Source: an uncultured Bacilli bacterium | Lineage (GTDB): Bacteria; Bacillota_I; Bacilli_A; RF39; UBA660 | Length of the DNA: 64,000 nt | Assembly (NCBI GenBank): GCA_910577505.1 | Contig: CAJTLN010000002.1 | Coordinates: 114,740 to 178,739, forward strand | Reading direction: 5' to 3' | Shown here: positions 2,068 through 60,068 of the stretch, one piece after another | Layout: every line of letters starts with the position of its first letter | How positions within the stretch are numbered: position 1 is the first letter of the stretch | Notes under the pieces: generated by a model | What the model was told of the DNA's origin: nothing | Seen by the model: the letters and a program-made list of their open reading frames with translations, nothing else | The model's database searches: none | Translations under genes and position numbers: made by a program

Positions 2068-2113
2068 TGTAAAAAAATTACAATTTATTGTATACTAATT
2101 ATAGGTGATAAAA

Positions 2114-7214: not shown

Positions 7215-7234
7215 TTATTAAAGGAATGGTATTG

Positions 7235-40156: not shown

Positions 40157-42439
40157 ATGGAAGATAAAGAATTAGAAAAGACTAAGCCTATTGAAGTTAT
40201 TAATGAAGAAATTGAAAGTCGTAGTGAACGATATAATGAAGATTTTAGCGATGACTTGTCTAGAGAACAAAAGTATAAAGATAAAATAGAAGTTGAAGAA
40301 AGAAAAGTAGAAGAAGAAGCTGCTGAAGAAGCTTTAGCCGAAAAAAATATTGCATTGGCAGAATCATATTTAGCAGAAGAAAGACAAGAAGAAGTTTTAG
40401 AAGAACCAGTTCTACAGAAAAAAATGAACTTGATAGATAAAATAAAAGCTAAATGGGAAGATATGGATAAAAAACAAAGAATAATGTTAATTGTGATTCT
40501 TGTTTTATTATTGATTTTAATATTAATATTTACAATTTTTATAGTTATTAGGTTAAATAAAAAAGATACTTTAGATAAGCCAGAGAAAAAAGTAGAAGAA
40601 AAAGCTCCAGAAATAACTGATAATTTCTATTATAAAGACGGTAAGTTATATTTTTTAGATGCTTCAGAAAAAGAAATAGGAACATATGAATGTGAAAATA
40701 AGGATTCTAAATTATGTTATGTGGCTAATAATAAATATAGGGATGATTTTGATGTTCCAAAATTAGAAGATGAAGATAAAGAAGAAATAGTTAATAGAAT
40801 GTCAATATATGAGGATAATTATGTTTTTGTTGTAGATACAAGTGATGAGAAGAATAAAGATACTAAGTTATACTCTATAAAAGATAATGAAGTTAAGGAT
40901 GCATATTCTGATGTTAAAGCTTATGATGATAATTATGTTATTGTAGCTAATACAGATAAGAAATATGGTTTAATAGAGATAAATGAAGGAATAAAAGAAG
41001 TTATAAAGAATAATTATGAATATTTAGGATTAATAGATGGAGAAGATAACCTAATTGCTAAAAATAAAAAAGGTTACATTGTTATTGATAAAAAGAATAA
41101 AGAATTAAGTTCTATATTTGATTCTAAGTATGAAATTAAATCGTATAATAATAATTTTGTAGTTGCTAAAGTAGGTAACGAATACTTAGCATTTAATTAT
41201 AAAAATGAAGTTATTGCTAGTGGATATAAATATATAACAGTAGCTGATGATTATGTTGTTGCAGCAAATGATGAGAAAAAAGTTTATATTTATGATGGTG
41301 AAAAAAATAAATATAATGAAGGTAATATATCTTTAAATAATGATAATTATGTTAAGACATATATTTATAATGATAAGGGAAGTATTCTAGAAATAAAGAG
41401 AAGCTTTGAAGTAACTGTTAAAGATACTGTAATAGAAATAGCTGTTTATAAAGAGGGAGAAGATAATCCGACTTATAAAAACATTGATATTGTTGAAGGA
41501 TTAGCAAATAAGAAAAATAAATATGTAAATTATTTTGAAAATAAATTGTATATTTATAAAGATTTAGATAAAACACAATTGTTAACAATTTATACTTGTG
41601 ATAATAAGAATTATATAACTAAAGAGTCAGATACTTTTGATTATTGTTTTATTGCTCAAGATGAAATATATGAAGATCACGATATGATGGAACAAGGATA
41701 TAAAGATAGAAAAGCTTTGGTTCCAATAATAAATAATAGATTTATCTTTATCAAAGATGGTAATAATACAGTAAAATTATATAATTTTGTTGAAGATAAA
41801 GTAATGGGAACATATACAAGTGTTAATTCTTATACTAATAATAATGATTATAGTGTTTCATATTTTGATGGTAAGATTGATATTGTAGGTGTAAATAAAA
41901 AAGGTAAATATGGGGTACTTACAATAGATGGTGATAATGTAAGGGCGAAATATACATTTGAATATAATAAGATAGAAAAAATGGAAGATAATTTTATTGC
42001 TCAAGATTCAAATAATAATTGGAAATTATTAAAGAGTGATGGAAATGAGTCCGAAAGTTTTAAAGGTAAAATAATGGGTTATTCTAAAGATATGAAGTAC
42101 TTTAAAATTAAGGTCGGCAATAATTATGTTGTATATAATGATAATAATGAACAAGTTAGTGTAGATATTCATTCTTATGTTGACTTATATAATGGCTATT
42201 ATGTTGGAGTAGACAAAGAAAAAAAATTGTATATATATGATTATCAAGGTGAAAAATTATCTACAGAAGGGATTAAATTAGGAGATTTTCCTTATGTTAA
42301 TACAAATAATCCTGCATATAAGGTAAAGAAGGTTGGCAATGACTTTGTAGTTTCTGTATATGATGGATCAAATTATATTGATTATAGTACAAAAGCAGAT
42401 AAAGTAGAGACTCCAGAAGAAAATTCGGAAGAATCATAA
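40157..42439 (+). CDS. type-II membrane protein: acidic coiled-coil cytoplasmic N-terminus, one TM helix, large extracytoplasmic WG/KWG-like repeat (beta-propeller-type) domain
   Basis: RBS aaaggtagg. TM helix IMLIVILVLLLILILIFTIFIVI. More than 10 degenerate ~35-45-aa repeats of the form (D/N)NYV.V....KKYG(L/V)I..NG..V(I/L), including NNNWKLLKSDGNE. Confidence 0.5.
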   Translation: MEDKELEKTKPIEVINEEIESRSERYNEDFSDDLSREQKYKDKIEVEERKVEEEAAEEALAEKNIALAESYLAEERQEEVLEEPVLQKKMNLIDKIKAKWEDMDKKQRIMLIVILVLLLILILIFTIFIVIRLNKKDTLDKPEKKVEEKAPEITDNFYYKDGKLYFLDASEKEIGTYECENKDSKLCYVANNKYRDDFDVPKLEDEDKEEIVNRMSIYEDNYVFVVDTSDEKNKDTKLYSIKDNEVKDAYSDVKAYDDNYVIVANTDKKYGLIEINEGIKEVIKNNYEYLGLIDGEDNLIAKNKKGYIVIDKKNKELSSIFDSKYEIKSYNNNFVVAKVGNEYLAFNYKNEVIASGYKYITVADDYVVAANDEKKVYIYDGEKNKYNEGNISLNNDNYVKTYIYNDKGSILEIKRSFEVTVKDTVIEIAVYKEGEDNPTYKNIDIVEGLANKKNKYVNYFENKLYIYKDLDKTQLLTIYTCDNKNYITKESDTFDYCFIAQDEIYEDHDMMEQGYKDRKALVPIINNRFIFIKDGNNTVKLYNFVEDKVMGTYTSVNSYTNNNDYSVSYFDGKIDIVGVNKKGKYGVLTIDGDNVRAKYTFEYNKIEKMEDNFIAQDSNNNWKLLKSDGNESESFKGKIMGYSKDMKYFKIKVGNNYVVYNDNNEQVSVDIHSYVDLYNGYYVGVDKEKKLYIYDYQGEKLSTEGIKLGDFPYVNTNNPAYKVKKVGNDFVVSVYDGSNYIDYSTKADKVETPEENSEES

Positions 42440-42464: not shown

Positions 42465-42519
42465 CTTGTTGACACATTCTTTTTGACTAAATATAATAAA
42501 TTTTTAATTGGGTGGTTTA

Positions 42520-43269
42520 ATGAAAAATATAGATTTATTTTTAAAAATGAAGAAAGATCTTGGTGGTTATCAAATAGGATTTCATAATATAGGATTGAAA
42601 AAATATCAAAGACTTATAAGTGGTGATTATAAATATAAAGATTTGTTTGAAATTACAGGTGCTGATGTTAGCGAAAAAGCAATTGCTGAGAGGATTTTAA
42701 ATAGTGGATTAAAGGTTGTTGAAAGATGTAGGGGATTAAGAAGTACTGTTATGCCAGTTAATGATTTTAATGAGGAAAGTTTAAATTATACATATAATTT
42801 GTATGGAGTTGGAACTACTTATAATATAATTGTCGCAATTCCATATATATTTTATTATAATGGGGAAAAGTATTTTGTGGGAGATATTAATGATTGGGCA
42901 AGTTTTTGTAATATATTTATGTTTCCTTCTGGTATAACTAAAGAATTCATTTATGGCTATTATACAAAGGAAATTGTTGATTCTATTGAGGAACGTGTTG
43001 GTAATAATGTTTGGCATGAGTTGATTTATGATGACGAATTAGAGTTTGTTGATAATCATAATTTTTATGGTAAAATGAGCCAGGAAGACCAAGCACTATT
43101 TTTAAGAGAGATTTTTAAGGGAAGAAGGAGATTATTGAGTAATTTAAAACTTGCTAATAGTGATAAAAAGTGGCCTTTATTATTTAGAACTCCTTATGAA
43201 AGAATGGTTATAAAAAATACAAGAGAAGATGCTAAAAGATTAATATATGAAAAATATGAAAAAAAATAA
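42520..43269 (+). CDS. hypothetical protein
   Basis: ATG with RBS gggtgg. About 250 aa. No motif. Confidence 0.45.
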   Translation: MKNIDLFLKMKKDLGGYQIGFHNIGLKKYQRLISGDYKYKDLFEITGADVSEKAIAERILNSGLKVVERCRGLRSTVMPVNDFNEESLNYTYNLYGVGTTYNIIVAIPYIFYYNGEKYFVGDINDWASFCNIFMFPSGITKEFIYGYYTKEIVDSIEERVGNNVWHELIYDDELEFVDNHNFYGKMSQEDQALFLREIFKGRRRLLSNLKLANSDKKWPLLFRTPYERMVIKNTREDAKRLIYEKYEKK

Positions 43270-43291
43270 CTACAATTTGGTAGTTATTTTT
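43267..43291. terminator. bidirectional rho-independent terminator between convergent genes
   Basis: aactac-aatttgg-tagtt hairpin with an A6 run upstream and T5 downstream. Confidence 0.55.
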
Positions 43292-44267
43292 CTATGTAAT
43301 AAGCGTAATACTCATCAAATGTTATGTTTTCTTCGTAAATTTGTTTTGCTACATCATAGCCAACATATCTAAAATGCCAGCTTTCTGTATTATATCCTGT
43401 TATATGTTCTTTTCCTTCTGGGTAACGAAGAATAAAACCATATTTGTAACAATTATCTTTTAACCAAGCATATTCTTCAGATTCTTTAAACTCATTGGCT
43501 GTTTTATGCTCTAAAGAAGTGATATCGATTGCAAGTCCAGTTTGATGTTCGGAAAAACCTGGACGAGCAGCGTATGAATCAGCATATTTTAAACTTATTT
43601 TTTTATATTCGTTATATATTTCTTCTTGAGATTTGTAAGGACGATATGATGAGTTAATCATTAATCTTACACCAAGGGCTTCATTAACATCGTTGCGCAT
43701 ATTTTCAAAATTTTCAATAACAATACTAGCTACTTTATTGCCAGCGTAAGAATATTGCAAGCTGACGTTTTGTAAGTCAGTTCTTTCATAATTGCTATCT
43801 AAATAATAAAATTTATTAACTATGACTAAATAGTTATTGTCAATGTTGCTTTTATATGTTTCATTATACCATCCGGCATTGGCATGAACATTTACAAGTG
43901 CTATAACATCTTCATATGTTGTTTTTTCGTGGTATTCTTTGTATTCGACATATTTGTCAAAGTATTTTTCTTTATAGTATTTTTGATTTACTATTTGATA
44001 ATATGATTCATTGTATTTTTTAGTAAGAATTTGATCTAATTTATCTGATGAAAGTTTTTCTATTAGTTTTGTTGTCTCTTTTTTAGAATATCCTTTTTCT
44101 AATATTTTATATTCGTATGTTTCTTTGTACTTGAATTCTTCGACAATTTTAATAGATTCATTTATTGTATAAATGAACATTATTATAAAAAATGTGAAAT
44201 AAATTAGGAATCTTTTGAAGCTTGACTTTAGGCGAAGACGCTTTTTCTTCTTTTTTCTTTTTACCAT
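43284..44267 (-). CDS. D-alanyl-D-alanine carboxypeptidase, VanY / peptidase M15B family, N-terminally membrane-anchored
   Basis: SYRPYKSQEEIY...AARPGFSEHQTGLAIDI...WLKDNCYKYGFILRYPEGKEHITGYNTESWHFRYVG are the VanY/M15B motifs (Zn ligands H..D...H). RBS aaaggatg. Confidence 0.8.
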   Translation of the reverse strand: MVKRKKKKKRLRLKSSFKRFLIYFTFFIIMFIYTINESIKIVEEFKYKETYEYKILEKGYSKKETTKLIEKLSSDKLDQILTKKYNESYYQIVNQKYYKEKYFDKYVEYKEYHEKTTYEDVIALVNVHANAGWYNETYKSNIDNNYLVIVNKFYYLDSNYERTDLQNVSLQYSYAGNKVASIVIENFENMRNDVNEALGVRLMINSSYRPYKSQEEIYNEYKKISLKYADSYAARPGFSEHQTGLAIDITSLEHKTANEFKESEEYAWLKDNCYKYGFILRYPEGKEHITGYNTESWHFRYVGYDVAKQIYEENITFDEYYAYYIEK

Positions 44268-44406: not shown

Positions 44407-44973
44407 ATGAGAAAAGGAAAAAGCATAAAGTTAGCAGTAGTAGTAGCTGTATTAGCAATGTTGGTAGGTTTTGCTGCTGTTTCTACTGTTTTAAGATTTA
44501 ATGGTACTGTTTCATTAAAAGGTAATGCTGCTGAATTTGAAAATAATCTTCGTTTTGTTAGTACTGGTGCTAAAGCACCTACAATTGAGTCAAGTATGAA
44601 TAAAACTGGTAATAAGTCAGTATCTGTATCTGATAATGGAAAGCAATTAACTTTTGTTACACCAGAGTTTAATACAGTAGGTGAAACAGCAACTGTTACT
44701 TATTATGTTGAAAATGTTGGTCAATATGACGCTTTACTTGGGGAAATAACTTGTAAGGCTACTGCTACAAATGCAAATTTAGTTGATTATTTAGAAATAA
44801 TTGAAAGTACTAATTATAATGGAACTACACTTGCTGCTGGTAGTGAAGCAAGTCCTACTCAAACTGAAGAAGCTTCAACTATCACAGTTAAGTTAAAGAA
44901 AACTTACGCTAGTGAAGAAACAGGGATAGTAACAATTACTTGTCAATTACCTGCAACAGCTAAAGAAAATTAG
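44407..44973 (+). CDS. small secreted TasA/camelysin-like (SipW-cognate-type signal) protein
   Basis: Strong RBS gaggagg. MRKGKSIKLAVVVAVLAMLVGFAAVSTVLRFNGTVSL resembles the TasA-family signal/N-region (...LVGGGTWAAFND...). The mature ~150-aa beta-rich domain FVTPEFNTVGETATVTYYVENVGQYDALLGEITCKA is paralogous to the N-regions of 47520, 51539 and 58782. Confidence 0.55.
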   Translation: MRKGKSIKLAVVVAVLAMLVGFAAVSTVLRFNGTVSLKGNAAEFENNLRFVSTGAKAPTIESSMNKTGNKSVSVSDNGKQLTFVTPEFNTVGETATVTYYVENVGQYDALLGEITCKATATNANLVDYLEIIESTNYNGTTLAAGSEASPTQTEEASTITVKLKKTYASEETGIVTITCQLPATAKEN

Positions 44974-45012: not shown

Positions 45013-46152
45013 ATGTTAAAAATTGGATTACAGATTGTATTTGAAATTTTATTAGCAATATTACTATTCTTTAACGTTTTTGTACTCAGAACTTTTAATT
45101 TAGTTTGGGTATTTATTGGATTATTAGGATTTTTAATTTTTTTATTATTTTTAATTAAGTATAAGAAACCTAGTAAACAAAGAAGTAAGACATTATATTA
45201 TATAGTAGTTGGTGGATGTTTAATTGTTCAAATATCTTTCTATATATGGGGATTATTTACAGGTTTTTCTACAAGTTATAATGTATTTTATAGAAATTAT
45301 TTATCAAAGATTCATATACTTGGTGTATTCTTTATTGTTTCTATAACTGAAATGATAAGATATCTTATTTTCTTAAATTATAATTATAATAAAAAAGATA
45401 AGAAAAAGTATATAGCAAGATTCATAATGATATTTAATTATGTTCTTATAGATTATATGTTGTTAGGAAAAAGTTGTAATTTTACAAGTAGATATGACTT
45501 AGTTAATACTTTATTGACTTTTGTTATTCCTTCAATTGCTAAAAACTTGTTTTTAGATTATACGAGTCAAAAATATGGTTATATAGTTAATTATTGGTAT
45601 CGATTAATAATGGATTTATACTTATATTTTATTCCTATAGAACCAAATGTAAATATATTTATAAAGACTGTAATATTATCAGTTTTACCATATTTTCTAT
45701 ATGTTATATTGGAAAATGTGTTTGGTAATAAAAAGAGAATAGCTCGTAAAGATAAAAAGAAAAACATAAGTGTTAATATTGTAACTTTAGTAATTCTTGC
45801 AGTATTGGTTTATTTAATATCGTGTCAATTTACTTATTCGATGATAGCTGTCGGAAGCGAATCAATGCAGGGGACTATTAATAAAGGTGATGCTGTAATA
45901 TATAAAGAATATAAGGGTGAAAAATTAAGTGATGGAGAAGTAATTGTATTTCGACAAAATAATAAATTAATAGTTCATCGTATATCTTCTGTATTTGAAT
46001 TAGATAATGGAGATCAAGCCTTTAATACAAAAGGTGATGCTAATGTTAGTGAAGATAATTGGATTGTAACTAAAGAAAATGTAGTTGGCGTTGTAAAATT
46101 AAGAGTTTTACTGATTGCATGGCCATCAGTATTATTAAATGAATGGTTGTAA
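45013..46152 (+). CDS. SipW-like (ER/archaeal Sec11-type) signal peptidase I with ~265-aa N-terminal polytopic membrane extension
   Basis: The C-terminal 110 aa carry, in order, the Sec11/SipW boxes: VGSESMQGT (SGSMEP), KGDAVIY (GD), LIVHRIS (HR, His-type catalytic dyad) and TKGDANVSEDN (GDNN). The N-terminal ~265 aa form 6-7 hydrophobic helices. Confidence 0.7.
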   Translation: MLKIGLQIVFEILLAILLFFNVFVLRTFNLVWVFIGLLGFLIFLLFLIKYKKPSKQRSKTLYYIVVGGCLIVQISFYIWGLFTGFSTSYNVFYRNYLSKIHILGVFFIVSITEMIRYLIFLNYNYNKKDKKKYIARFIMIFNYVLIDYMLLGKSCNFTSRYDLVNTLLTFVIPSIAKNLFLDYTSQKYGYIVNYWYRLIMDLYLYFIPIEPNVNIFIKTVILSVLPYFLYVILENVFGNKKRIARKDKKKNISVNIVTLVILAVLVYLISCQFTYSMIAVGSESMQGTINKGDAVIYKEYKGEKLSDGEVIVFRQNNKLIVHRISSVFELDNGDQAFNTKGDANVSEDNWIVTKENVVGVVKLRVLLIAWPSVLLNEWL

Positions 46153-46166
46153 GTGGAGTGATAAAA

Positions 46167-47492
46167 ATGAATGAAGAAAAAAATAATAGAAATAAGAAAG
46201 AGATTATTTTAGTAGCAGTTGGAGCAGTTGTAATTTTAATGCTTACAATGTTTTTATGTTACAAATCAATAAAAAGTAAAGAAGAGTATGTTATGCATTA
46301 TTCTGATAGTTCAGAACTAGATTATAACGTATATTTAAAAAAGAATGATTTTTATACTACTCCATATTTACCTAAAGATAGAGTATATATTTCAACATTA
46401 ATAGATTATATTGATGCGTCTTTCAATTATAATTTTGATGTGGTCGAAGATATTAATTTAGGATATAAATATTATATAAGTGCGAAAGTTGTTGTTGATA
46501 GTAGTTCTGGAAAAAGAATTTTTGAAAGTGAAGATATGCTTTTAGATAAGACAAGACTACAAAGAGTTAAAGATAAGAAATTCTCAATTAAAGAAAATGT
46601 AAAAATAGATTATAATAAATATAATCAATTAGCTAGTTCATTTATCAACAAATATGAACTTTCAGCTAAAGCCAATGTACTTGTAAGTATGTATGTTGAT
46701 GTAGCTGGTACTTATGAAAAATTTGAAAAGGAATTAAATGATTCAGCTGTAGTTAGTTTTGAGATTCCTTTGACTGCTAATACTACAGAATTAAAAATGA
46801 ATTATGATTTAAAAAATAATGTAAATGAAAAATTTGAATATGGTAAAACAAGGATTATTCATCCATTCTTATTTGCTTTATCTATATTAATAGCAATTAT
46901 AGATATTATATGGTTTATATATGAATTAGTTATATATGTTCAAAATAAAGATGTAAAAGTTAAATATAAAGAAAAATTAAAAAAGATATTTAGAGATTAT
47001 GGTCCTTATATTAGTAAGAAAGCAGCATCTACTAATACTAGAGATATTATGTATACTATGTCGTTAAGAATAGAAGTAGTTAATTCTTTTGATGATTTAA
47101 TTAATGTAAGAGATAGTATTGAAAAACCTATTTTGTTCTATGAAGCAATACCTGGAGAGCAGGCAATATTCTATATTATAGATACTAAAGTTTCTTATAT
47201 TTATATAATGAATGCAAGAGATTGTGGTAAGAAAAAAAATGAAGAAATTGAATATACTCAGGAAGAAGAAAAAGATATAGAATCTATTTCTAATATTGAA
47301 AATTTTGAACAAGAAGTTGAAGAGGTAGTAGAAAATGAAGAAACTACTGAAAAAATAAAAGAAGATATTAAAGAAGAAAAAAAAGAGGAATTATCTACTA
47401 TTGATCAAGAGGAAGTAATAGATAAAGATAAAGAAAAAAAGAAAAAGAAGAAAAAAAAGAGTACTAAAAAGAAAAAAGAAGTAGCTGAATAG
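46167..47492 (+). CDS. bitopic membrane protein with extracytoplasmic domain between two TM helices and K/E-rich cytoplasmic tail (possibly DUF5305-like SipW-locus partner)
   Basis: Overlaps the peptidase gene end (start inside its last codons, RBS agtggagtga). TM1 is IILVAVGAVVILMLTMFLC and TM2 is IIHPFLFALSILIAIIDIIWFIYELVIYV. Ends in EEKKEEL...KEKKKKKKKKSTKKKKE. Confidence 0.5.
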   Translation: MNEEKNNRNKKEIILVAVGAVVILMLTMFLCYKSIKSKEEYVMHYSDSSELDYNVYLKKNDFYTTPYLPKDRVYISTLIDYIDASFNYNFDVVEDINLGYKYYISAKVVVDSSSGKRIFESEDMLLDKTRLQRVKDKKFSIKENVKIDYNKYNQLASSFINKYELSAKANVLVSMYVDVAGTYEKFEKELNDSAVVSFEIPLTANTTELKMNYDLKNNVNEKFEYGKTRIIHPFLFALSILIAIIDIIWFIYELVIYVQNKDVKVKYKEKLKKIFRDYGPYISKKAASTNTRDIMYTMSLRIEVVNSFDDLINVRDSIEKPILFYEAIPGEQAIFYIIDTKVSYIYIMNARDCGKKKNEEIEYTQEEEKDIESISNIENFEQEVEEVVENEETTEKIKEDIKEEKKEELSTIDQEEVIDKDKEKKKKKKKKSTKKKKEVAE

Positions 47493-47519: not shown

Positions 47520-50500
47520 ATGAAGAGAAAAAGTCGTATAAAGATAAATAAACTTAAGCTGGTTATGATAATCCTTGTTTTTTCTATGACTATTGGTTTT
47601 GCAGCTTTAAATACTGAATTAAATTTCTTTGGAGTAAGTACAATAGCTTTTGGTGAAAATGATTTTAGAGTTTATATTAGTAGAGCTTTTATAAATGATG
47701 TTGGTAAATCAAATGTTATAAACGAAAATAAAGATGCTTTTACTTTTACTTATTCTGATATTAATCGTAAGGATGCTGACTTAAAATATACAGTAAAAAA
47801 TACTTCAAATTCATATTATGCAGATGTTGAAGTAAGTTGTAAATCTCGTAAAAATGATGGAACTTCGTTTATTTATAATGAAGAAAATTATGAAAGTCAT
47901 AAGTTTCGTATTGAGCCAGGAAAGTCTTTAACTAAGGATATTAAGTTATTGCTTCCTAATACAAATTTAAATTTAATAAGTGAGAATTCTGATATTTTAT
48001 TGGTAGATCATATAAAAGGTATATCAAAAGGTAGTGATAGTAATATTAATTTTAATACATCAAATGGCACAGGTGTATATGAAAGTACAAGTACAAATTC
48101 TGGTAATAAGGTATATTATTATCGTGGAGCTACTGCTAATAATGATGTTATATTTGCAGATAAATGTTGGAAGATTTTAAGAACTTCTGAAAATGGTGGA
48201 ATAAAGTTAGTTTATAATGGTAATTCAATTGGTGGCACTTGTACGGAATTTTCTTCATCGTTAGGAATTTTATCTGATGAGGAAGTTATACAAATTGATA
48301 GTTCTCAGAATTTTAATAATAATGCATATGCAGGATATATGTATGGTGGTTTAAATTCGTCTGATTATTTGGGAACTCATAGTAATATAAATGATTCTTA
48401 TTTTAAACAAAAATTGGACGATTGGTATGAGAGATTTATTTTAAACACTGAATATGAAAAATATGTAATTGATGATTCTTTTTATAATGATAGAACTATA
48501 TTAAGAGATTATTCTAAAGTTACTAGTACTGATACTTTTGAAGGTTTAGGTTATGGTACTCATACTACTTTGTATGAAAGTGCTGGAAGATCTAGTTCAT
48601 TAGCAAAAACATTGTCACCTACTTATAAAGTTAATAATACAAATGATAGTTTTTCTGTTTCTAGTACTAATGGTAATGGTAAATTAAATTATCCTATAGG
48701 AATGTTGACAGCAGATGAATTAGTATATGCGGGAGTAACTAATGATGCTTCTAATAAGTCATGGTTAGAGGCATATAAAAGATTTATTTTAACAATTTCT
48801 CCTGTTGGATATTATAATAATTCAATGAATTTTAATGCATTAAGTGGTAGAGTTTTAAAGGCTTATCCTTCTGATTTTAAAGACGAAAGTGTTTATGTTT
48901 TACCAGTTTTAACTATAAGTTCAGATTTACATATTGTTAGTGGAGATGGAACGTCATCTAGTCCTTTTGTGTTATCTTCTGAAGATACATACGAGAATAG
49001 TTACACTTGTTCTCTTAATGTTAATAAAGTAGGTTATAGTGAAGATATAGAACCAAGAAATCCTTTACTTGATTTAGAGGTTGGGGAAGAGTATTGTTTT
49101 GATGAAGAATGTTTTTATACGATTAGCAATGACAATAAAGGAACTATAAAAATGATTGCTAAGTATAATTTATATGTTGGAAATAATTATGCTGATTATT
49201 CTAATTCTACAACTATTTCTAAAACAGATGCTTTATATGGAAAACAACATTATACAGCTGTAGGTACGCCAACATCAGGTGCGTATCCTCATATTGCAAC
49301 TGTTCCTTATAGTAAAAATACTACTGATAATACTTATGTTAATAGTGTTGTAAAAAATTATGTTGATGAATATGGGAAATATTTACAAGATCTTACAGGA
49401 ATTAATTTAAAGGCTGAACTTATTACTAGAGATGAATTAGTTGATTTGGGATGTGTTGTTATATCGAAGACAGACGGAAATTGTAATAATCCTAAGTTTG
49501 ATTGGGTAACTAGTACTACTTATTGGACTATGACTCCTGAGAATGGAACAGTTTATTTAGTTGGAAGTGATGGTTATTTTAAGGCTCCAACTACGCAATC
49601 GAACCTGGCAGCAAGTATGTTTAGAGGAGTACGACCTGTAATAACTATTTCTTTACCATCTAAGAATCCAGATGTAACTTTTGTTACAGGTAATGGTGAA
49701 ACACCTGGAGATGAATTATGTATAGGTAATGAATGTTTCTACGTTTTAAAATATGATGAGACTAATTATACTTTGTTTTCTAAATATAATTTATATGTTG
49801 GAAATAAATTTGATACCGGAAGTAGAACAACAATTAGTACGACTGATCCAAGTTATGGCAAGCAGAATTCTTTGGCTCTAGGAGATAAAGGATCACCAAT
49901 ATATGGAACGTTAAATTATGCAGATTCACTTAAAGCAATAAGTAATTATGTAGATTATTTGAATAATACGTATGGTTTGCACGCGACTGGAAGAGGCATT
50001 TCTCTTGAGGAATTGGAAAATCCAATTGGATGTCGAGATTTAACTGGTTCTGGTATTAATCATGGTTGTAGTAAAGAGAAAAATCCGCTTGTTAAATATG
50101 AATGGGTAACTAATACAACTTATTGGACAGGTGCTCTGAGTGGAGATAACGTTTATATAGTAGGAGGAGATGGCTTTTTTAAAGCTGTTGCTAAGACAAA
50201 TACGGATAATCGAGGAGCTCGACCTGTTATTATTGTTCCTGCATCTGAAATAAAAAGTCCTGATTATGTTGTAGATGATAAAAATAAATATCCAGAGTCT
50301 TGGAATGATAATGGTATCTTTTCTGAATATTACGACCAAGCATACGAAAAGTTAAAGACAATGACGACAGAAGAAAAGATTGGTCAGTTGTTGGTTGTTT
50401 CTTATTCTAATGGTAAGCCTAGTGATACTGAAAAAGCCATACAGAGTTACCATGTTGGAGGAGTTTTATTTTTTGCTGATGCTTTTGAAGACAAGAGTGA

Positions 50501-51413
50501 AGCGCAAGTTATATCTATGACATCTAATTTGCAGTCTAAATCTAAAATACCTTTAATGATGCAAGTTGATGAAGAAGGTGGAATTGTAACTCGAGTGGCT
50601 AGAAATACTAATTTAGTTAGTAATGAACTGCAAGCTTATCCAAATTTATTTAAAACATATACAAGAACAATTAGTGGAGTAACGTCTACATTTAATGGAT
50701 TTAAGTCTCCTAGTGATTTATATAATGATAGTGGTCATAATTTTGAACTAGTTAAGCAAGAGACTAAAGTTAAAAATTCAGTTTTAAGAAGACTTGGATT
50801 AAATATAAACCTTGCTCCAGTTTCTGATATAGCTGCTTCATCTTCTTATATTTATCCTAGAACTTTAGGAAAAGATGCATTCACAACTGGCGAATTTGTA
50901 AAGACAGTAGTAGAAACCAGCAAAAATAGTGGAGTTAGTCATTCATTAAAGCACTTTCCTGGTTATGGAAATAATTCAGATACTCATACTTCTTCATCAG
51001 TAGATGAAACTAGTTTGGAAGAATTAAAAAATAAGCACTTAGTACCATTTGTGTCTGGTATAAATGCTGGTGTTGAGTCTGTATTAATATCTCATAATAT
51101 TATTTCAGCTTTAGATAAAGATAATCCAGCTTCATTATCGTATGCAGTTCATTCGTTATTGTTTGATGATTTAGGTTTTACTGGTCTAGCAATAACAGAT
51201 GATTTATCTATGAATGCTAGTAGTGGTATTAGTAATACATATATAAAGGCATATACAGCTGGGAATCATATTTTGCTTACATCTGATAAATATGCTACTG
51301 CATATAGTGAAATATTAGAAGGTGTTCAATCTGGAAATATTTCTCTTTCGGATTTAAATCAAAGAGTTTTTAAAGTATTGGCTTGGAAATATTATGCAGG
51401 AATATTATCATAG
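47520..51413 (+). CDS. 1297-aa secreted multi-module protein: TasA-like signal/N-domain, repeated ~200-aa modules, C-terminal GH3 beta-N-acetylhexosaminidase (NagZ-like) domain
   Basis: RBS aaggagat. N-terminal MKRKSRIKINKLKLVMIILVFSMTIGFAALNTELNFFG resembles that of 44407. Two modules carry ECFY..., KYNLYVGN..., SYGKQ, W.T.TTYWT, G.DG(Y/F)FKA, (V/A)RPVI (approx. 49080-49670 and 49700-50250). The C-terminus (approx. 50330-51413) has KIGQLLVV, QVDEEGGIVTR, KHFPGYG and GFTGLAITDDLSM, which are GH3/NagZ motifs. Confidence 0.7.
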   Translation: MKRKSRIKINKLKLVMIILVFSMTIGFAALNTELNFFGVSTIAFGENDFRVYISRAFINDVGKSNVINENKDAFTFTYSDINRKDADLKYTVKNTSNSYYADVEVSCKSRKNDGTSFIYNEENYESHKFRIEPGKSLTKDIKLLLPNTNLNLISENSDILLVDHIKGISKGSDSNINFNTSNGTGVYESTSTNSGNKVYYYRGATANNDVIFADKCWKILRTSENGGIKLVYNGNSIGGTCTEFSSSLGILSDEEVIQIDSSQNFNNNAYAGYMYGGLNSSDYLGTHSNINDSYFKQKLDDWYERFILNTEYEKYVIDDSFYNDRTILRDYSKVTSTDTFEGLGYGTHTTLYESAGRSSSLAKTLSPTYKVNNTNDSFSVSSTNGNGKLNYPIGMLTADELVYAGVTNDASNKSWLEAYKRFILTISPVGYYNNSMNFNALSGRVLKAYPSDFKDESVYVLPVLTISSDLHIVSGDGTSSSPFVLSSEDTYENSYTCSLNVNKVGYSEDIEPRNPLLDLEVGEEYCFDEECFYTISNDNKGTIKMIAKYNLYVGNNYADYSNSTTISKTDALYGKQHYTAVGTPTSGAYPHIATVPYSKNTTDNTYVNSVVKNYVDEYGKYLQDLTGINLKAELITRDELVDLGCVVISKTDGNCNNPKFDWVTSTTYWTMTPENGTVYLVGSDGYFKAPTTQSNLAASMFRGVRPVITISLPSKNPDVTFVTGNGETPGDELCIGNECFYVLKYDETNYTLFSKYNLYVGNKFDTGSRTTISTTDPSYGKQNSLALGDKGSPIYGTLNYADSLKAISNYVDYLNNTYGLHATGRGISLEELENPIGCRDLTGSGINHGCSKEKNPLVKYEWVTNTTYWTGALSGDNVYIVGGDGFFKAVAKTNTDNRGARPVIIVPASEIKSPDYVVDDKNKYPESWNDNGIFSEYYDQAYEKLKTMTTEEKIGQLLVVSYSNGKPSDTEKAIQSYHVGGVLFFADAFEDKSEAQVISMTSNLQSKSKIPLMMQVDEEGGIVTRVARNTNLVSNELQAYPNLFKTYTRTISGVTSTFNGFKSPSDLYNDSGHNFELVKQETKVKNSVLRRLGLNINLAPVSDIAASSSYIYPRTLGKDAFTTGEFVKTVVETSKNSGVSHSLKHFPGYGNNSDTHTSSSVDETSLEELKNKHLVPFVSGINAGVESVLISHNIISALDKDNPASLSYAVHSLLFDDLGFTGLAITDDLSMNASSGISNTYIKAYTAGNHILLTSDKYATAYSEILEGVQSGNISLSDLNQRVFKVLAWKYYAGILS

Positions 51414-51427
51414 ATAATTAAATTAAT

Positions 51428-51467
51428 CTCAGTAAATGAAAATACTGAGATTTTTTATTAATGTTAT
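51428..51467 (+). terminator. rho-independent terminator
   Basis: atctcagta-aatgaaaa-tactgagat hairpin followed by T6. Confidence 0.65.
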
Positions 51468-52009: not shown

Positions 52010-52053
52010 ACGTAAGAAAAAGTCTATACAAGAGTGTGTAGATTTTTTTGTAA

Positions 52054-52081
52054 TTAGCAGTTGACCATTGACATCTGCTAA
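52054..52081. promoter_or_regulatory. CIRCE-like operator 1 (imperfect, 10-nt spacer), overlapping the hrcA promoter
   Basis: TTAGCAGTT-gaccattgac-ATCTGCTAA compared with consensus TTAGCACTC-N9-GAGTGCTAA. The 7-bp arms TTAGCAG/CTGCTAA are perfect inverted repeats. Confidence 0.5.
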
Positions 52082-52096
52082 TAAAATGTTTATAAT
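52068..52096 (+). promoter_or_regulatory. consensus sigma-A promoter for the hrcA-grpE-dnaK operon (TTGACA-17-TATAAT)
   Basis: ttgaca at 52068-73 and tataat at 52091-96 with 17-nt spacing. Embedded between/within the two CIRCE elements. Confidence 0.65.
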
Positions 52097-52100
52097 TAAT

Positions 52101-52127
52101 TTGGCACTTAAGAAAGAATAGTGCTAA
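52101..52127. promoter_or_regulatory. CIRCE operator 2 (HrcA binding site)
   Basis: TTGGCACTT-aagaaagaa-TAGTGCTAA is a 9-N9-9 inverted repeat that matches the CIRCE consensus at 15 of 18 arm positions. Located just downstream of the -10. Confidence 0.8.
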
Positions 52128-53886: not shown

Positions 53887-55713
53887 ATGGGAAAAATTAT
53901 TGGTATAGATTTAGGTACAACAAACTCATGTGTTGCAGTACTTGAAGGTGGAGAACCACACGTTATAACTAATCCAGAAGGAAATAGAACAACTCCTTCA
54001 GTAGTTGCTTTTAAAGGTGATGAAGAATTAGTTGGTGAAACTGCTAAAAGACAAGCCGTTACAAATGTAGATAATACAATTGCTTCAATTAAAAGAAAAA
54101 TAGGTACTAAAGAAAAAGTTAGTGCTAATGGTAAGAAATATACTCCAGAAGAAATAAGTGCAAAGATTTTAATGAAATTAAAGAGCGATGCAGAAGCTTA
54201 TTTAGGAGAAAAAGTTACAGAAGCAGTTATTACTGTTCCTGCATACTTTAATGACGCTCAAAGACAAGCTACTAAGAACGCTGGTAAGATTGCTGGTTTA
54301 GATGTTAAACGTATTATTAATGAACCAACAGCCGCAGCTTTAGCTTATGGTATTGATAAACAAGAAAATGCTCATACAGTATTAGTTTATGACTTAGGTG
54401 GAGGAACATTCGATGTTTCAATTCTAGACTTAGGTGATGGTGTATTTGAAGTTAAATCAACATCAGGAAATAATAAACTTGGTGGAGATGATTTTGACCA
54501 AAGAATTATGGATTATTTAGTAGCAGAATTTAAGAAAGAAAATGGTGTTGATTTATCAAATGATAAAATGGCAATGCAACGTATTAAGGATGCTGCTGAA
54601 AAAGCTAAAAAAGATTTATCTGGTATGACTTCAACACAAATTAATATTCCATTTATTACTCAAAATGAAAATGGACCATTACATTTAGATGTAACATTAT
54701 CAAGAGCTAAATTTGAAGAAATCAATATGGATTTATTTGAAAGTACTTTAGATCCAGTTAGAAAAGCACTTAAAGATGCTAAGTTAACTGCTAAAGATAT
54801 TGATAAGGTATTATTAGTTGGTGGATCAACTCGTATTCCATATATTCAAGATTTAGTTAAGAAAGAATTAGGACAAGATCCTAGTAAAGGAGTTAACCCT
54901 GATGAATGTGTTGCAATTGGTGCATCTATTCAAGGTGGTGTTTTAACTGGTGAAGTTAATGACTTAATCTTATTAGATGTAACTCCATTATCACTTGGTA
55001 TTGAAACTTTAGGAAATGTTATGACAGTATTAATTCCTAGAAATACAACAATACCAGCAAGTAAGAGTCAAGTATTTAGTACTGCTGCAGATAATCAACC
55101 TGCTGTAGATATTCATATCTTACAAGGTGAAAGACCAATGGTACAAGATAATAAGACTCTAGGAAGATTCCAATTAGGAAATATTCCTCCAGCACCTAGA
55201 GGAGTTCCACAAATCGAAGTTAAATTTGATATTGATGCTAATGGTATCGTTAATGTATCTGCTAAAGATTTAGGAACTGGTAAAGAACAAAGTATTACAA
55301 TTACTTCAAATACTAACTTAACTGATGAAGAAATTGATAAGATGATGAAAGAAGCAGAAGCTAATAAAGAACAGGACGAAAAACGTAAAGAAGAAGCAGA
55401 AGTAAGAAATGAAGCTGATTCATTAATCTTCCAAACTGAAAAGGCAATTAAAGATTTAGGAGATAAAGTTGATTCTGCAGATAAAGAAAAAGCTGAAGAT
55501 AAAATGAAAGAATTAAAAGATGCTTTAGCTGGTGATGATTTAGATGCTATAAAAAAAGCAAAAGATGAATTACAAGAATCTGCTATGGCATTAGCTACAA
55601 AAGTTTATGAAGAAGCTGCAAAAGCAAATCAAGCTAATGCTGGCGAAGCTACTGAATCATCTGATGATGATAAACATGATAATGTACAAGAAGCTAGTTA
55701 CGAAGAAAAATAA
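53887..55713 (+). CDS. dnaK: molecular chaperone DnaK (Hsp70)
   Basis: [18 protein letters not shown]...[10 protein letters not shown]...[11 protein letters not shown]... is unmistakable Hsp70. Confidence 0.97.
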
Positions 55714-55776: not shown

Positions 55777-57582
55777 ATGCAAAAATATAATAGTAGAGAT
55801 GAAGTACCTGAAGAATTTAAATGGGATTTAACTCCATTCTTTAAAAATAATGACGAATTTGAAGATAGTTATAAAAAGACAAAAGAATTAGCTTTAGAAT
55901 TAAAAGATTATGTTGGGTGTACTAAAGATGCTAATAGATTGTATGAATTCTTAAAAAAGCAAATAGAGTGCATTGCTTTATGGGAAGATTTATATGTTTA
56001 TGCATATTTGATTAATGATCAAGAGCTTGGAATTTCAGAAAGTATGGAAAGAAAAAACAGATCAGAACAGTTAAATACTATTTTAACTACAAATACTAGT
56101 TTTTTTGCTCCAGAGTTATTAAGATTATCAAAAGAAGAATATGATGCATTGTTTAAAAATAATTCTAAATTAGAAGAATTTAGAGCAGATTTGGATAGTA
56201 CTTATAGAGAAAAAGAACATGTTTTATCGGAGAATGAAGAAGTTATTGTAAGTCAATTAACTGATGCAATGAATCATTTTGACGATATGTCTTCGGCTTT
56301 ATTAAATAAAGAACATGATTATGGAAAAATAAAATTAGAAGATGGTAGTGTTTCTACTATTGCTCCAAATAATTTTCGTTCTTTGATGCGTAATAAAGAT
56401 GAAAATATACGTAAGAGAGTTTATAACCTATTTAATAAAAAGTTAATGCAATATGCAGATAGTAATGCAATGTATTTAAATAGTTATGTTTCTATGAATG
56501 ATACAATTGCTAAAATTCGTCATTATAAAGATTCTTGGAATAGTAAATTATTTGGTTTAAATTTAAGTGATAAAGTATTTAAAACATTAGTTAAAGTTAC
56601 TGAGGATGGATATGATACTTTACATAGATATTATGAATTAAAAAAGCATGCTTTAGGATTAGATACAATGCATAGATATGATTTGTATTTAGAAATGGCT
56701 AAGTCTGAAAAAGAATATAGTATACCTGAAGCACAAAAGTTAATACGTGAAGCATTAAGACCATTAGGGGAAAAATATTTAGAAAAGTATGATAAAGTTA
56801 TTAAAAATCGTTATATTGATTATTGCCAATATAAAGGGAAATGTAGCGGTGGATACTCATTTTCTACAGTGTTACAAGATTCTAGAATACTAATGAGTTA
56901 TAATTATACTTTGGATTCTGTTTCAACAATAGCACATGAAGCAGGTCATAATATTCATCATCAATTCGTAGGGGAAAATAATCCTTATCAATATCGTTTC
57001 CCATCTTCAATTGTTGCAGAAGTTGCTTCTTTAACAAATGAATGTTTACTTTCTAATTACTTAGCTGAGCATGGCGAAACAAAAGAAGAAAAATTAGCGG
57101 GTCTTGCCAACATTATGGGAGTTATTACAAGCAATTTATTTGATGCGGTAAGAGAAGGTAAACTTGAACAAGAAATGTATCAAGAAGTACATAAAGGCGG
57201 AATGATTACTAAAGAATTCTTAAATAAAAAAGCTAAGTCTTCTTTAAAAAAATATTATGGTCCAGTTGTAAAAATGGATAAATATGCTGCTAATACATGG
57301 ATAACTAGAAGTCATTATTATATGCATTTTTATCTATATAGTTATTCAATTTGCATAAGTGTTGCTTCAAATGTAGCATCTAAAATTCTTGTAGGAGATA
57401 AAAAGATGCTTGATAGTTATATGAAATTTTTATGTGCAGGATCTGATAAATGGCCTAATGAAGCATTTGCGATTTTAGGAATAGATTTAGAGGATAGTTC
57501 TGTATATGAAAATGCTATAAAGTATTTTGATTCATTAATTGATAAATATTATGAAATACTTAATGAAGATGAGGTGAAATAA
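55777..57582 (+). CDS. pepF: oligoendopeptidase F (peptidase M3B)
   Basis: About 600 aa with HEAGH zinc motif (...[13 protein letters not shown]...) and PepF-like overall layout. Inserted between dnaK and dnaJ. Confidence 0.75.
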
Positions 57583-58709
57583 TGGCTAGTAGTAGAAATT
57601 ATTATGATGTTTTAGGTGTTTCTAAGACGGCTACAGATGCAGAAATTAAAAGTGCATTTAGAAAATTAGCTAAACAATATCATCCAGATATTAATAAAGA
57701 GCCTGGAGCTGAGGAAAAGTTTAAAGAGATTGGTGAAGCTTACGCAGTATTAAGTGATTCTGAAAAACGTAAACAATATGATCAATTTGGGCATGAAGCA
57801 TTCACACAAGGAGCTGCACAAGGTGGATTTGGTGGAGGATTCGGAGGATTTTCTGCCGATGATATTGATTTATCTAGTATCTTCGATGATTTATTTGGTG
57901 GTGGAATGTTTGGAGGAGGATCTCGTAGAGGACAAAATAGAAATCGTCCTACGAAGGGAAGAGATTCTTTAGTAAATGTAACACTAACTTTCGAAGAAGC
58001 TGTATTTGGTTGCAAAAAAACTATTAATATAGATTTAGATTCAGAATGTGAGTCTTGTGATGGAAAAGGTGGAAGTGGCGAAGAAACATGTTCTACTTGT
58101 GGTGGTAGAGGAAGAGTTATCACACAACAAAGAACGATGTTTGGAGTTTTCCAATCTGAAACAACTTGCCCTGATTGTAATGGGAAAGGTAAGTCATATA
58201 AAAATGTATGTAAAAAATGTAATGGTAGTGGACATGTAGTAAAAAATAAAGAAATAGAAATTACTGTTCCAGAAGGTGTTGATACAGGACATCAACTGCG
58301 TATTACAGGTAAAGGTGCTGCGGGATATAATGGTGGCCCTAATGGTGATATTTATATTGAATTTAAAGTAAAAGATCATCCGTTATTTGAAAGAAAAGAA
58401 AATGATATTTATGTAGATGTACCACTTACAATTACAGAAGCGGTTTTAGGTTGTAAAAAAGAAATACCAACATTATCTGGAAGTGTAGTATTAACAATTG
58501 ATGCAGGAAGTCAACCTGGAGATCAATTACGACTTAGGGGTAAAGGAGTTAAAGATCCTGTTCGAAATAAAAAAGGCGATATGTATGTTGTTTTAGATGT
58601 AGTTATTCCAGATAAATTAGATAGAAAACAAAAAGAGTTATTTAAAGAGTTAGATAAAACAGACTTAGAAACAGGTAATAGTTTTAAAAACTTTAAAAAA
58701 TATCTATAA
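57582..58709 (+). CDS. dnaJ: molecular chaperone DnaJ
   Basis: J-domain YYDVLGV...HPD (HPD motif), a G/F-rich region, and four CxxCxGxG zinc-finger repeats. Confidence 0.95.
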
Positions 58710-58781: not shown

Positions 58782-60068
58782 GTGGCTAAATTTTGGAATA
58801 TGGACAATAAATACTCAATAATTATTGTATCTATGGTTGGTGTTTTTGTTATATTAGTTATATTAGCTGTAATATTTAGTAACGTGAAATTTGAGGCGAA
58901 AACTGAAGGAACTGTTGCAAAAATAATTAATGATGGAGATTTAACGATAAATTATGTCGATGGAGATATGATAGATTTTAATGATTCTAAAGAACATTCT
59001 TATGGTGTTACTATAACAAATACATCTGATGCCAAATTATACTATTCTATTTATTTTAGCTCTGCTAATGTAGATGCGAATGTAAGAATAAATGATTATG
59101 AAGGTAAAACAGTTAATGAATTAAGTGAAGATATAACTAAAAATAAGTTGATTAATCTTTATAGTATAGAAAGTGGAGAAACATTAAGATATACAATAGT
59201 TATAAAGAGTAAAAGTAAGTTTAAAGGTAATTTAAACGTTGTTAATGAGTCTTTAACAACGGATACTTTTTCTGATTTAATATTATTAAATAACAATATC
59301 TCAGTACCTAAAACTAGAGTAGGTGAAGAAATTGCTACAAAGAATGAGGGATTAATTACGACAATTGATAATAGAGGAACTTCTTATTATTTTAGGGGAG
59401 CAGTATTAAATAACTATGTAAAATTAGGAAATATCTTATTTAGAGTTGTTAGAATTAATGGTGATAGTACTGTAAGATTAGTTTTAGATAATGCGTTAGA
59501 AACTCAATTGGCGTATAATACAAACTCATTAGCTCAAGATCAAGAGCCTTCGTCACTAGCTTTACTTTCTGGGGCATCTATATTAACTTCATTAAATACA
59601 TGGATGGAAGAGAATTTAGCTGATTATTTATCATATTTAACAGTTGGGGATTATTGTACTGATACTAATTTTAATAATAATATAAATGGAATTAACTATT
59701 CTTCTGCATACAATAGAAATATTGTTGATAAAGAACCAGACTTATTTTGTACTGGAGAGGTATATACTGGTAAAGTTGGATTATTGAGTGCTGATGAAGT
59801 AGTATTTGCGGGAGCATCTACTAATATACCTAATAGTAGTTATTATTTGTATAATAAAGATATTCAAGGGAACTATGTAACAAATAGTAGTTATTCTGTT
59901 AATTCTGCTAATAATGTAGCAATGATAAATGTAATGTCAAATGGAGCTTTTGGAGATGGTATTCTAATAAATAATATTTCTTATGTAAGACCTGTTATAA
60001 ATGTTAGTATAAGTGCTAAAGTTAAAGGGTCAGGTACATTAAAAGATCCATATATTATTGTTTCTTAA
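58782..60068 (+). CDS. secreted/anchored paralog of the N-terminal region of the 1297-aa protein (TasA-like N-domain + YY(F/Y)RGA...RLV and LLSADEVV(F/Y)AG blocks)
   Basis: N-terminal hydrophobic segment IIIVSMVGVFVILVILAVIF. SYGVTITNTSDAKLYYSIYF aligns with YTVKNTSNSYYADVEVSCKS. GTSYYFRGAVLNNYVKLGNILFRVVRINGDSTVRLV aligns with GNKVYYYRGATANNDVIFADKCWKILRTSENGGIKLV. VGLLSADEVVFAG aligns with IGMLTADELVYAG. Start is GTG 58782 or ATG 58797. Confidence 0.55.
   Translation: MAKFWNMDNKYSIIIVSMVGVFVILVILAVIFSNVKFEAKTEGTVAKIINDGDLTINYVDGDMIDFNDSKEHSYGVTITNTSDAKLYYSIYFSSANVDANVRINDYEGKTVNELSEDITKNKLINLYSIESGETLRYTIVIKSKSKFKGNLNVVNESLTTDTFSDLILLNNNISVPKTRVGEEIATKNEGLITTIDNRGTSYYFRGAVLNNYVKLGNILFRVVRINGDSTVRLVLDNALETQLAYNTNSLAQDQEPSSLALLSGASILTSLNTWMEENLADYLSYLTVGDYCTDTNFNNNINGINYSSAYNRNIVDKEPDLFCTGEVYTGKVGLLSADEVVFAGASTNIPNSSYYLYNKDIQGNYVTNSSYSVNSANNVAMINVMSNGAFGDGILINNISYVRPVINVSISAKVKGSGTLKDPYIIVS

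Follow-up and report, generated by a model that had tools for sequence, protein, structure and literature searches.

An enzyme- and lectin-bearing giant protein in a candidate donor-strand fibre locus of an uncultured gut Bacilli bacterium

Introduction

Surface fibres of the TasA superfamily that come with a dedicated signal peptidase and a DUF5305 protein have recently been described, mostly in archaea and in a few Bacillota, and their tips are regarded as adhesins. In the haloarchaeal tafi system, processing of the major subunit TafA depends on the peptidase TafD, and the DUF5305 family is represented by TafG; TafC, a minor subunit that joins an N-terminal TafA-like sandwich to a laminin-G-like domain, is modelled at the tip, and TafF as an acceptor-only membrane anchor (PMC11821415, PMC12337348). 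The AbpX-type loci of archaea and Bacillota combine a ten-transmembrane (TM) signal peptidase I (SPase I) of the TIGR02228 type with an accessory protein of the DUF5305 family, made up of an extracellular sandwich, two TM helices and a domain in the cytoplasm; they also encode minor subunits, as well as tip proteins that vary in structure (bioRxiv 10.64898/2026.01.04.697558). Here we analyse a locus in a stretch of 64,000 nucleotides from an uncultured Bacilli bacterium (contig CAJTLN010000002.1, positions 114,740 to 178,739; assembly GCA_910577505.1), to which we refer in full as the window and whose own numbering is used throughout. Its central gene encodes a protein of 1297 amino acids (aa), here called the giant, in which a pilin-like N-terminal domain (the N-domain) and three C-type-lectin-like modules precede a glycoside hydrolase domain of family GH3.

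The cluster around the giant matches the Tafi/AbpX-type gene set gene for gene. Our best reading is a TasA-superfamily-type fibre locus whose large subunit carries an enzyme, which is one departure from described loci; the sections of the AbpX preprint that were consulted mention no enzyme-bearing tip (bioRxiv 10.64898/2026.01.04.697558). We give a probability of roughly 0.5 to the proposal that the giant, with its enzyme and lectins, forms the tip or a minor subunit of a donor-strand surface fibre, processed by the peptidase and targeted to glycans. Should it prove to be a fibre subunit, a glycoside hydrolase would for the first time, as far as we could find, be seen on such a fibre, and the system would be widespread in uncultured gut Bacilli, given about 8400 clusters with the N-terminal module. 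Under a more ordinary reading, too, it is an unusual fusion of C-type-lectin-like DUF6273 modules with a NagZ-type enzyme, and a previously unnamed repeat module now has a fold and a family. The locus also lends itself to experiment, since its putative cleavage motif is defined, its proposed assembly core comprises three genes and its enzyme domain, expected to be soluble, suits a simple fluorogenic assay.

A fibre-type gene cluster around the giant

The cluster consists, in window order, of genes for a 188-aa small subunit, a 379-aa signal peptidase, a 449-aa DUF5305-family protein, the giant and a 156-aa variant small subunit, with the peptidase gene two genes upstream of the giant (Table 1). 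A prior reading made from the DNA letters without database searches (the sequence-only reading) had overlooked this context: the DUF5305 gene, the polytopic peptidase and both small subunits.

In addition to its TIGR02228 match, the peptidase scores against the SipW model (E = 2e-11, under that model's cut-off) and Pfam Peptidase_S26 (E = 1.5e-7). A multi-span membrane domain of ~250 aa lies N-terminal to its catalytic domain, which has GSESM, VHR and GDAN boxes; a hydropathy scan places six hydrophobic segments above threshold, and by eye we estimate ~8–10 spans from the sequence. Over its full length the peptidase is 44% identical to its homologue in the related locus L004 (related loci and proteins carry L and P numbers below). 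The neighbouring 449-aa protein has two TM helices (aa 21–39 and 242–260) and a K/E-rich tail, and its counterpart encoded at L004:15034-16137 matches Pfam DUF5305 at E = 2e-15. By analogy with the described systems, a putative role as peptidase accessory subunit can be assigned to it (PMC11821415, bioRxiv 10.64898/2026.01.04.697558).

The gene set is syntenic in L001, reordered (giant, small subunit, peptidase, DUF5305) in L004–L006 and present in L007. Small subunit, peptidase and DUF5305 protein also adjoin, as a triad, stand-alone GH3 genes in three loci (L019, L032 and L056), and they recur in L086, which was reached independently via a small-subunit homologue. The surroundings of P0082 and P0085 added nothing on this linkage, owing to a contig end or absent DNA. 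Two open reading frames (ORFs) further upstream, 40157-42439 and 42508-43269, were rejected as members of the system, because their synteny extends no further than the close relative L001 and L004 lacks them. In a search of the operon for promoters, shuffled sequence scored at least as well.

Tafi and the cluster both have a multi-span signal peptidase I of their own alongside a DUF5305 protein. Both also have a small subunit, major in Tafi and putatively so here, with a beta-sandwich that is here a predicted one, and a larger, here presumably minor, subunit that combines an N-terminal pilin-like sandwich with a domain of carbohydrate-binding type; several FimA structures recur among the predicted fold matches. 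The differences are that Tafi is haloarchaeal and uses a Tat signal, whereas here the host belongs to the gut Bacilli and the signal is of Sec type; that no sequence similarity was detected between the two; and that TafC has one laminin-G-like domain, in contrast to the three C-type-lectin-like modules and glycoside hydrolase of the giant. We identified no C-terminally anchored TafF-like protein for the window's system. With the AbpX-type loci the cluster has in common the polytopic TIGR02228 peptidase and the DUF5305 protein, and the giant is a candidate counterpart of their variable tip proteins.

As in the tapA-sipW-tasA operon of Bacillus subtilis, a gene for a SipW-type Ser/His signal peptidase lies in the window between those of its secreted, here putative, substrates, and in either case fibres are proposed to form through an N-terminal donor strand. 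The cleavage region, G-x-aromatic-A-A-x-N, presumably also resembles that of TasA. Unlike the B. subtilis locus, the one studied here gives no TasA/Peptidase_M73 or TIGR04088 match and has a polytopic peptidase and a DUF5305 gene, the last of which the AbpX preprint does not list for the Bacillus TasA locus (bioRxiv 10.64898/2026.01.04.697558).

Table 1. Features of the giant's locus, in window coordinates
Feature	Coordinates	Strand	Basis
188-aa small subunit, putative major pilin-like protein; signal with VGFA-AVSTVLRFNGT motif, then beta-sandwich	44407..44973	+	
Polytopic signal peptidase I, archaeal/ER (SipW) type, 379 aa	45013..46152	+	TIGR02228, E = 2.4e-21
DUF5305-family protein, 449 aa, putative peptidase accessory subunit	46143..47492	+	44% identity, E = 2e-93 to L004:15034-16137
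Giant protein, 1297 aa	47520..51413	+	Intact ORF, Pfam GH3, full-length homologues
Giant: signal peptide, aa 1-28, ending G26-F-A28; probable cleavage A28-A29	47520..47603	+	Hydropathy; motif also in small-subunit family
Giant: putative donor strand (ALNTELNFFG...) and first part of pilin-like beta-sandwich, aa 29-150	47604..47969	+	Small-subunit profile match
Giant: domain A, large lectin-like module, aa ~160-487	47997..48980	+	Homology to B; tandem copies elsewhere; variant P0009
Giant: putative closing strand of beta-sandwich, aa 490-510 (NSYTCSLNVNKVG)	48987..49049	+	Resembles small-subunit C-terminal strand
Giant: module B1, C-type-lectin-like fold, aa 511-712	49050..49655	+	Pairwise match to B2; fold comparison
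Giant: module B2, paralogue of B1, aa 719-908	49674..50243	+	38% identity, E = 4e-30 to B1
Giant: GH3 NagZ-type domain, single TIM-barrel, aa 936-1297	50325..51410	+	PF00933; GH3 GlcNAcases are best solved relatives
Terminator-like hairpin, 10-bp stem, then T-run TTTTATT	51425..51452	+	Directly 3' of the giant's stop codon
156-aa variant small subunit, N-terminus without GFAA..T.L segment	51539..52009	+	Small-subunit profile, E = 7.4e-15

A pilin-like N-terminal domain shared with the small subunits

The first ~110 residues of the giant are 29% identical to the 188-aa protein (E = 4e-8), and a profile of the small subunits matches the giant at E = 1.6e-12. Common to both is a hydrophobic segment ending in G-F-A, followed by A(L/V)(N/S)T.L.F.G; G26 and A28 of the giant are invariant in 12 homologues, and conservation within the N-domain family peaks in the mature N-terminal strand. 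The giant had been called a SipW-cognate protein in the sequence-only reading, and this status is plausible, because the N-terminal signal motif and domain are shared with the 188-aa protein and a TIGR02228 peptidase is adjacent, even without a match to the SipW-cognate model.

Its companion claim, a TasA-like signal and N-domain, holds at most at the level of superfamily or fold. Two methods gave donor-strand pilins (the Sulfolobus thread, AbpA and FimA) as the best fold matches of the N-domain. The AlphaFold2 model of the 188-aa protein is a beta-sandwich with a pLDDT of 83.5, its N-terminal strand being the least confident part, and its best Foldseek matches are the FimA structures 6r74, 6erj, 6r7e, 2m5g and 5nkt (probability 0.80–0.98). 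Four of these (5NKT, 2M5G, 6R74 and 6R7E) coincide with the best matches given for TafE in the tafi paper (PMC11821415). TasA was not among the top fold matches, and the small-subunit profile found chance-level matches only among PDB sequences (e.g. Flpp3 and the MS2 coat protein), again without TasA. The predicted structures are thus suggestive, but not decisive, of a donor-strand pilin fold for the N-domain.

An exhaustive profile search found 8383 clusters with the N-domain at E ≤ 1e-3, of which 4871 also reach E ≤ 1e-10. The domain is always N-terminal in the best 150 matches, from proteins of 113–907 aa. The cargo behind it in 50 long members includes DUF6273 (10 proteins), ALK/LTK glycine-rich regions (6), Listeria-Bacteroides repeats, BspA leucine-rich repeats, DUF285 and discoidin; none of these 50 carries an enzyme, leaving the GH3 domain of the giant as the only one in this limited sample. 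The N-domain family is therefore large, unannotated and usually equipped with adhesin-type cargo.

The giant's sandwich appears to be interrupted. Small subunits end with a strand ...ITCQLPAT, and the giants have an invariant T496-C497 in the resembling segment NSYTCSLNVNK right after domain A. The variant P0009 lacks domain A and has its flanks joined directly, while in P0010 the strand equivalent to the closing strand is matched by the small-subunit profile. Since C107 and C497 are moreover both invariant among giants, we infer a C107–C497 disulfide, and the alignments together point to domain A being inserted in the last hairpin of the N-terminal beta-sandwich.

The 156-aa protein, whose gene follows the terminator-like hairpin downstream of the giant, keeps its membership of the beta-sandwich family, and a counterpart lies downstream of the giant in L001 (14011-14475, E = 1.8e-11). 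It is, speculatively, a candidate acceptor-only anchor or terminator subunit. A similar small-subunit variant with a different N-terminus is encoded at L004:9349-9891.

Layout and conservation of the giant

The giant is encoded in one uninterrupted frame with an ATG start, and about 12 proteins from metagenomes and metagenome-assembled genomes (MAGs) match it over the full length at 37–89% identity, which argues that the gene is real. The product is modular and predicted to be secreted, with a mass of ~140 kDa. A hydropathy scan detects a single, N-terminal hydrophobic segment; neither a C-terminal anchor nor an LPXTG motif nor a TM segment near the C-terminus was found, and a Pfam scan reports one domain only, Glyco_hydro_3. 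Every motif that had been quoted for this product could be located in the intact ORF at the claimed multiplicity.

Module content differs among the relatives: P0010 and P0011 have A+A+GH3, P0012 and P0013 have A+B+GH3, and P0009 has B1+B2+GH3 without A. Others, of 1427–1435 aa, carry additional module copies. The relatives that differ in this way include L008 8001-12308, L009 8007-12290, L002 10001-13801 and P0009. Given this variation, shuffling of the lectin-like modules within a single protein family is evident. The combination of domains in the giant had been suggested to be novel. The searches made here indeed found no characterised protein with a pilin-like head, lectin-like modules and a GH3 domain; what is not new is the fibre-locus gene set, already described for Tafi/AbpX-type loci.

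A NagZ-type GH3 domain

The C-terminal NagZ-like GH3 domain, predicted beforehand from its motifs, is borne out by a PF00933 match over aa 949–1287 (E = 1.2e-51; 176 bits against a cut-off of 27). Its signatures are KIGQL at residue 953, DEEGG at 1017, KHFPGYG at 1144 and GFTGLAITDDLSM at 1219. All the closest solved relatives are GH3 beta-N-acetylglucosaminidases, namely the Paenibacillus enzyme 6k5j (E = 3.5e-35), mycobacterial LpqI and B. subtilis YbbD/NagZ. With the B. subtilis (3bmx), Mycobacterium tuberculosis (6gfv) and Paenibacillus enzymes the domain shares the catalytic family, the nucleophile Asp and the Asp-His dyad, and these three are, like the giant's GH3, extracytoplasmic enzymes of walled bacteria. 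A single TIM-barrel domain is likewise all that LpqI and the Gram-negative NagZ enzymes have, whereas the giant's domain sits behind ~930 aa of pilin-like and lectin-like modules.

The catalytic residues, whose presence had been proposed as the check on this assignment, are in place. D1227, within AITDDLSM, aligns with the D318 column of YbbD (Asp in 3bmx, replaced by Asn in 3lk6, the entry of the D318N mutant) and is therefore taken as the nucleophile; D1154 and H1156 of KHFPGYGNNSDTH align with the Asp-His dyad D232/H234 of B. subtilis NagZ/YbbD. Nucleophile, dyad, KIGQL, DEEGG and KHFPG are all invariant in 12 aligned homologues. These alignments suggest that the domain is a NagZ-type and probably active beta-N-acetylglucosaminidase.

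A pattern scan of species-representative genomes returned at least 585 loci that encode a relative, and nearly all of the best 80 come from MAGs of uncultured 'Bacilli' or 'Tenericutes' of the gut. Such MAGs very often encode the unusual KHFPGYGN signature (L010–L085), within anchored proteins of ~450 aa. These also carry a small additional domain (...IYTF...), as at L037:7641-9032 on the complete 1.26-Mb chromosome OZ006994.1, and constitute a lineage-specific family of NagZ-like proteins.

Three C-type-lectin-like modules

Two modules of ~200 aa, similar as protein and diverged as DNA, had been recognised in the giant from the letters, and both are real: modules B1 and B2 have 41.7% protein identity and 55.4% DNA identity over 180 aligned residues, with a longest common DNA word of 23 nucleotides. 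They share ECFY (residues 530/738), KYNLYVGN (548/755), YGKQ (573/779), TTYWT (666/866), FKA (687/887) and RPVI (705/901). Self-BLAST of the whole giant did not reveal the repeat, which emerged only in the direct pairwise comparison (Table 1). Divergence at both levels indicates an old duplication rather than a recent repeat, and B1 and B2 form separate orthologous classes, each conserved across homologues.

A third module had been missed. Domain A, of ~330 aa with a large N-terminal extension, gives nothing significant against module B in BLASTP; its C-terminal half is homologous to B by profile-profile comparison (hhalign probability 94.7%, E = 6e-8), so that the giant has three lectin-type modules, not two. 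Single or tandem copies of domain A occur in many other surface proteins. The window itself holds a second member of the family downstream of dnaJ: the 428-aa product of 58782-60068 (+) combines a TM anchor at its N-terminus with a beta-sandwich and a module resembling domain A (YYFRG..NNYV..FRVVRINGD...VRPVINVS..GSGTLKDPYIIVS).

Fold comparison matches module B to an IgA protease of Thomasclavelia ramosa (9qa6; listed figure 9.8), the C-terminal domain of Legionella Lcl (8.1), Treponema TvpA (6.8) and Mtd of a Bordetella phage (5.5), followed at lower figures by dozens of classical C-type lectin domains. The B module thus has the C-type-lectin-like fold of the solved members. The 9qa6 match is attributed to the N-terminal domain of the protease, which has been described as DUF6273 (PMC12402451), and DUF6273 domains of phage receptor-binding proteins have been described as C-type-lectin-like (PMC10743442). 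In Pfam itself, B1 stays under the PF19789 (DUF6273) gathering score (E = 0.045; 14 bits against 23.5) and B2 and A have no match; some module B homologues and some members of the N-domain family pass that threshold. Profile homologues and fold together identify A, B1 and B2 as DUF6273/Lcl_C-type, C-type-lectin-like putative ligand-binding domains, which names the family of the repeat module. With the DUF6273/Lcl_C (DUF1566) domains of 9qa6, of the Legionella Lcl C-terminal domain (8q4e) and of the variable proteins of DGR systems, B has the fold in common; the points of difference are the sub-threshold DUF6273 score and the length of domain A.

The joint profile of B1 and B2 also finds proteins of 250–370 aa in which the module is a C-terminal head. 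Ahead of these heads lies either a type IV prepilin N-terminus (PF07963, GFTLIELLAVIVILAIIALIA) or the giant's own N-domain, and a few of the proteins have a PF19789 match. One lectin-like head therefore occurs on two unrelated filament-subunit scaffolds, and B is a module repeatedly displayed on filament subunits. The heads on PF07963 N-termini include P0097, P0102, P0104, P0106, P0108, P0110, P0111 and P0113, among others.

A proposed mechanism and its alternatives

Beyond the domain assignments, every step of the mechanism we propose is inferred computationally. The polytopic peptidase, with the DUF5305 protein as accessory, would cleave after G-F-A, and the conserved mature N-terminal strand would be donated to the sandwich of an adjacent small subunit, the donor-strand complementation known from the TasA, Tafi, Abp and thread fibres. 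The giant would become the tip or a minor subunit of a short surface fibre built mainly of the 188-aa protein, and the 156-aa variant might, in the most speculative step, act as an acceptor-only terminal or anchor subunit. The lectin-like modules would bind a glycan-bearing target, from which the GH3 domain would remove terminal beta-linked N-acetylglucosamine (GlcNAc). Candidate targets are peptidoglycan fragments, host mucin-type glycans and chito-oligosaccharides, with host or dietary glycans and peptidoglycan fragments equally possible as substrate.

The window also contains FemAB-family, two Wzy_C (O-antigen-ligase-like) and VanY genes (2105-3340, 7226-8539, 9943-11247 and 43284-44267 (-)). 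They indicate that this low-GC organism (~26%) has a peptidoglycan wall and surface polysaccharide machinery, despite the 'Tenericutes' labels on related MAGs, and because the organism is walled, as FemAB and VanY show, peptidoglycan fragments are a possible substrate, as for B. subtilis NagZ.

Several observations weigh against the fibre proposal. Neither the N-terminus of the giant nor the 188-aa protein, nor any of the 36 family members, matched TasA/Peptidase_M73, camelysin, DUF1102 or the SipW-cognate model (TIGR04088) in Pfam and NCBIfam at permissive thresholds (E ≤ 10 for the first two). The predicted mature N-termini, A-L-N-T in the giant and A-V-S-T in the 188-aa protein, lack the aromatic-2/acidic-4 calcium-binding donor-strand signature that the preprint gives for AbpX; for this reason we rejected membership of the AbpX subfamily, to which no sequence match was found either. 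The P0010 locus has no adjacent peptidase, which speaks against an obligatory linkage. The GH3 domain, too, is atypical. The NagZ signature is reportedly KH[FI]PG[HL]G-x4-D[ST]H (Litzinger et al. 2010). In the giant it reads KHFPGYG-x3-DTH (K1144-H-F-P-G-Y-G-N-N-x-D1154-T-H1156), with a loop from G to D that is one residue shorter and Tyr at the usual His/Leu position, and the best NCBIfam match, the NagZ equivalog model NF003740 (119 bits, E = 2e-34), remains under its 207-bit cut-off; on these grounds we file the domain as NagZ-type GH3 and not as a NagZ equivalog. Finally, the usual form of the enzyme in related genomes is the plain one of ~450 aa with an N-terminal membrane anchor, which implies that the enzyme can work without a fibre; one MAG has both this form and a giant (L024 and L006), and the giant is accordingly a derived fusion or paralogue.

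This last observation leads to the alternative that survives best, an ordinary secreted or signal-anchored wall-turnover enzyme. The giant would be an elaborated paralogue of the ~450-aa NagZ-like protein, its sandwich and lectins spacers or wall binders, and the peptidase would just remove the signal, with no fibre involved. Stand-alone TM-anchored GH3 proteins with KHFPGYGN in hundreds of related MAGs, their co-occurrence with a giant in one MAG, the walled state of the organism (with VanY adjoining the cluster) and the extracellular NagZ (YbbD) that acts in B. subtilis peptidoglycan recycling (PMC5061867, PMC8054146) all speak for it. We nevertheless consider it rather unlikely, since it leaves unexplained the homology of the N-domain to stand-alone small subunits that are always beside a polytopic peptidase and DUF5305, the strong conservation of the mature N-terminal strand, the pilin-like fold, and the B module as head of type IV pilin-like proteins.

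The sequence-only reading had favoured a SipW-processed hexosaminidase that is released to remodel matrix or wall and is retained by repeats binding wall or matrix polymers, in which case the N-domain would have no structural role. The lectin-type folds of the modules, the adjacent SipW-type peptidase and a giant devoid of C-terminal anchor, LPXTG motif and TM segment fit this picture; the conservation of the N-domain and its homology to the small subunits do not, and leave it improbable. The repeats look like targeting modules, and the giant is more likely tethered by its pilin-like N-domain, together with the conserved cluster of peptidase, DUF5305 protein and small subunits, than by them. 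A purely adhesive giant with the GH3 domain as non-catalytic carbohydrate-binding head, as the adhesin-like cargo elsewhere in the N-domain family, the atypical signature loop and the score under the NagZ cut-off might suggest, is very hard to credit against nucleophile, dyad and KIGQL/DEEGG/KHFPG motifs invariant across 12 giants and KHFPGYGN retained in hundreds of stand-alone homologues.

The fibre proposal can be extended to a bolder form, which we regard as doubtful. Gram-positive bacteria may possess a very large class of surface fibres, as yet unannotated, that need neither sortase nor chaperone, are built from 'VGFA-AxSTxLxxNGT' beta-sandwich subunits cut by a polytopic SPase I–DUF5305 complex, and bear exchangeable tip cargo; the giant would then be a catalytic pilus tip with which reduced-genome gut Bacilli harvest GlcNAc at a distance.

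Neighbouring heat-shock genes

Downstream of the cluster, a perfect sigma-70-like promoter (TTGACA-17-TATAAT, 52068-52096) lies upstream of hrcA, with a CIRCE-like inverted repeat on either side, TTAGCAGTT-N9-ATCTGCTAA at ~52053-52081 and TTGGCACTT-N9-TAGTGCTAA at ~52101-52127; the region as a whole (52053-52127) looks like ordinary heat-shock operon control. Between dnaK (53887-55713) and dnaJ (57582-58709) is a 601-aa ORF (55777-57582, +) whose counterpart in L001 is a Peptidase_M3 (oligoendopeptidase F-like) gene, and a gene of this type inside an hrcA-grpE-dnaK-dnaJ operon is an uncommon insertion.

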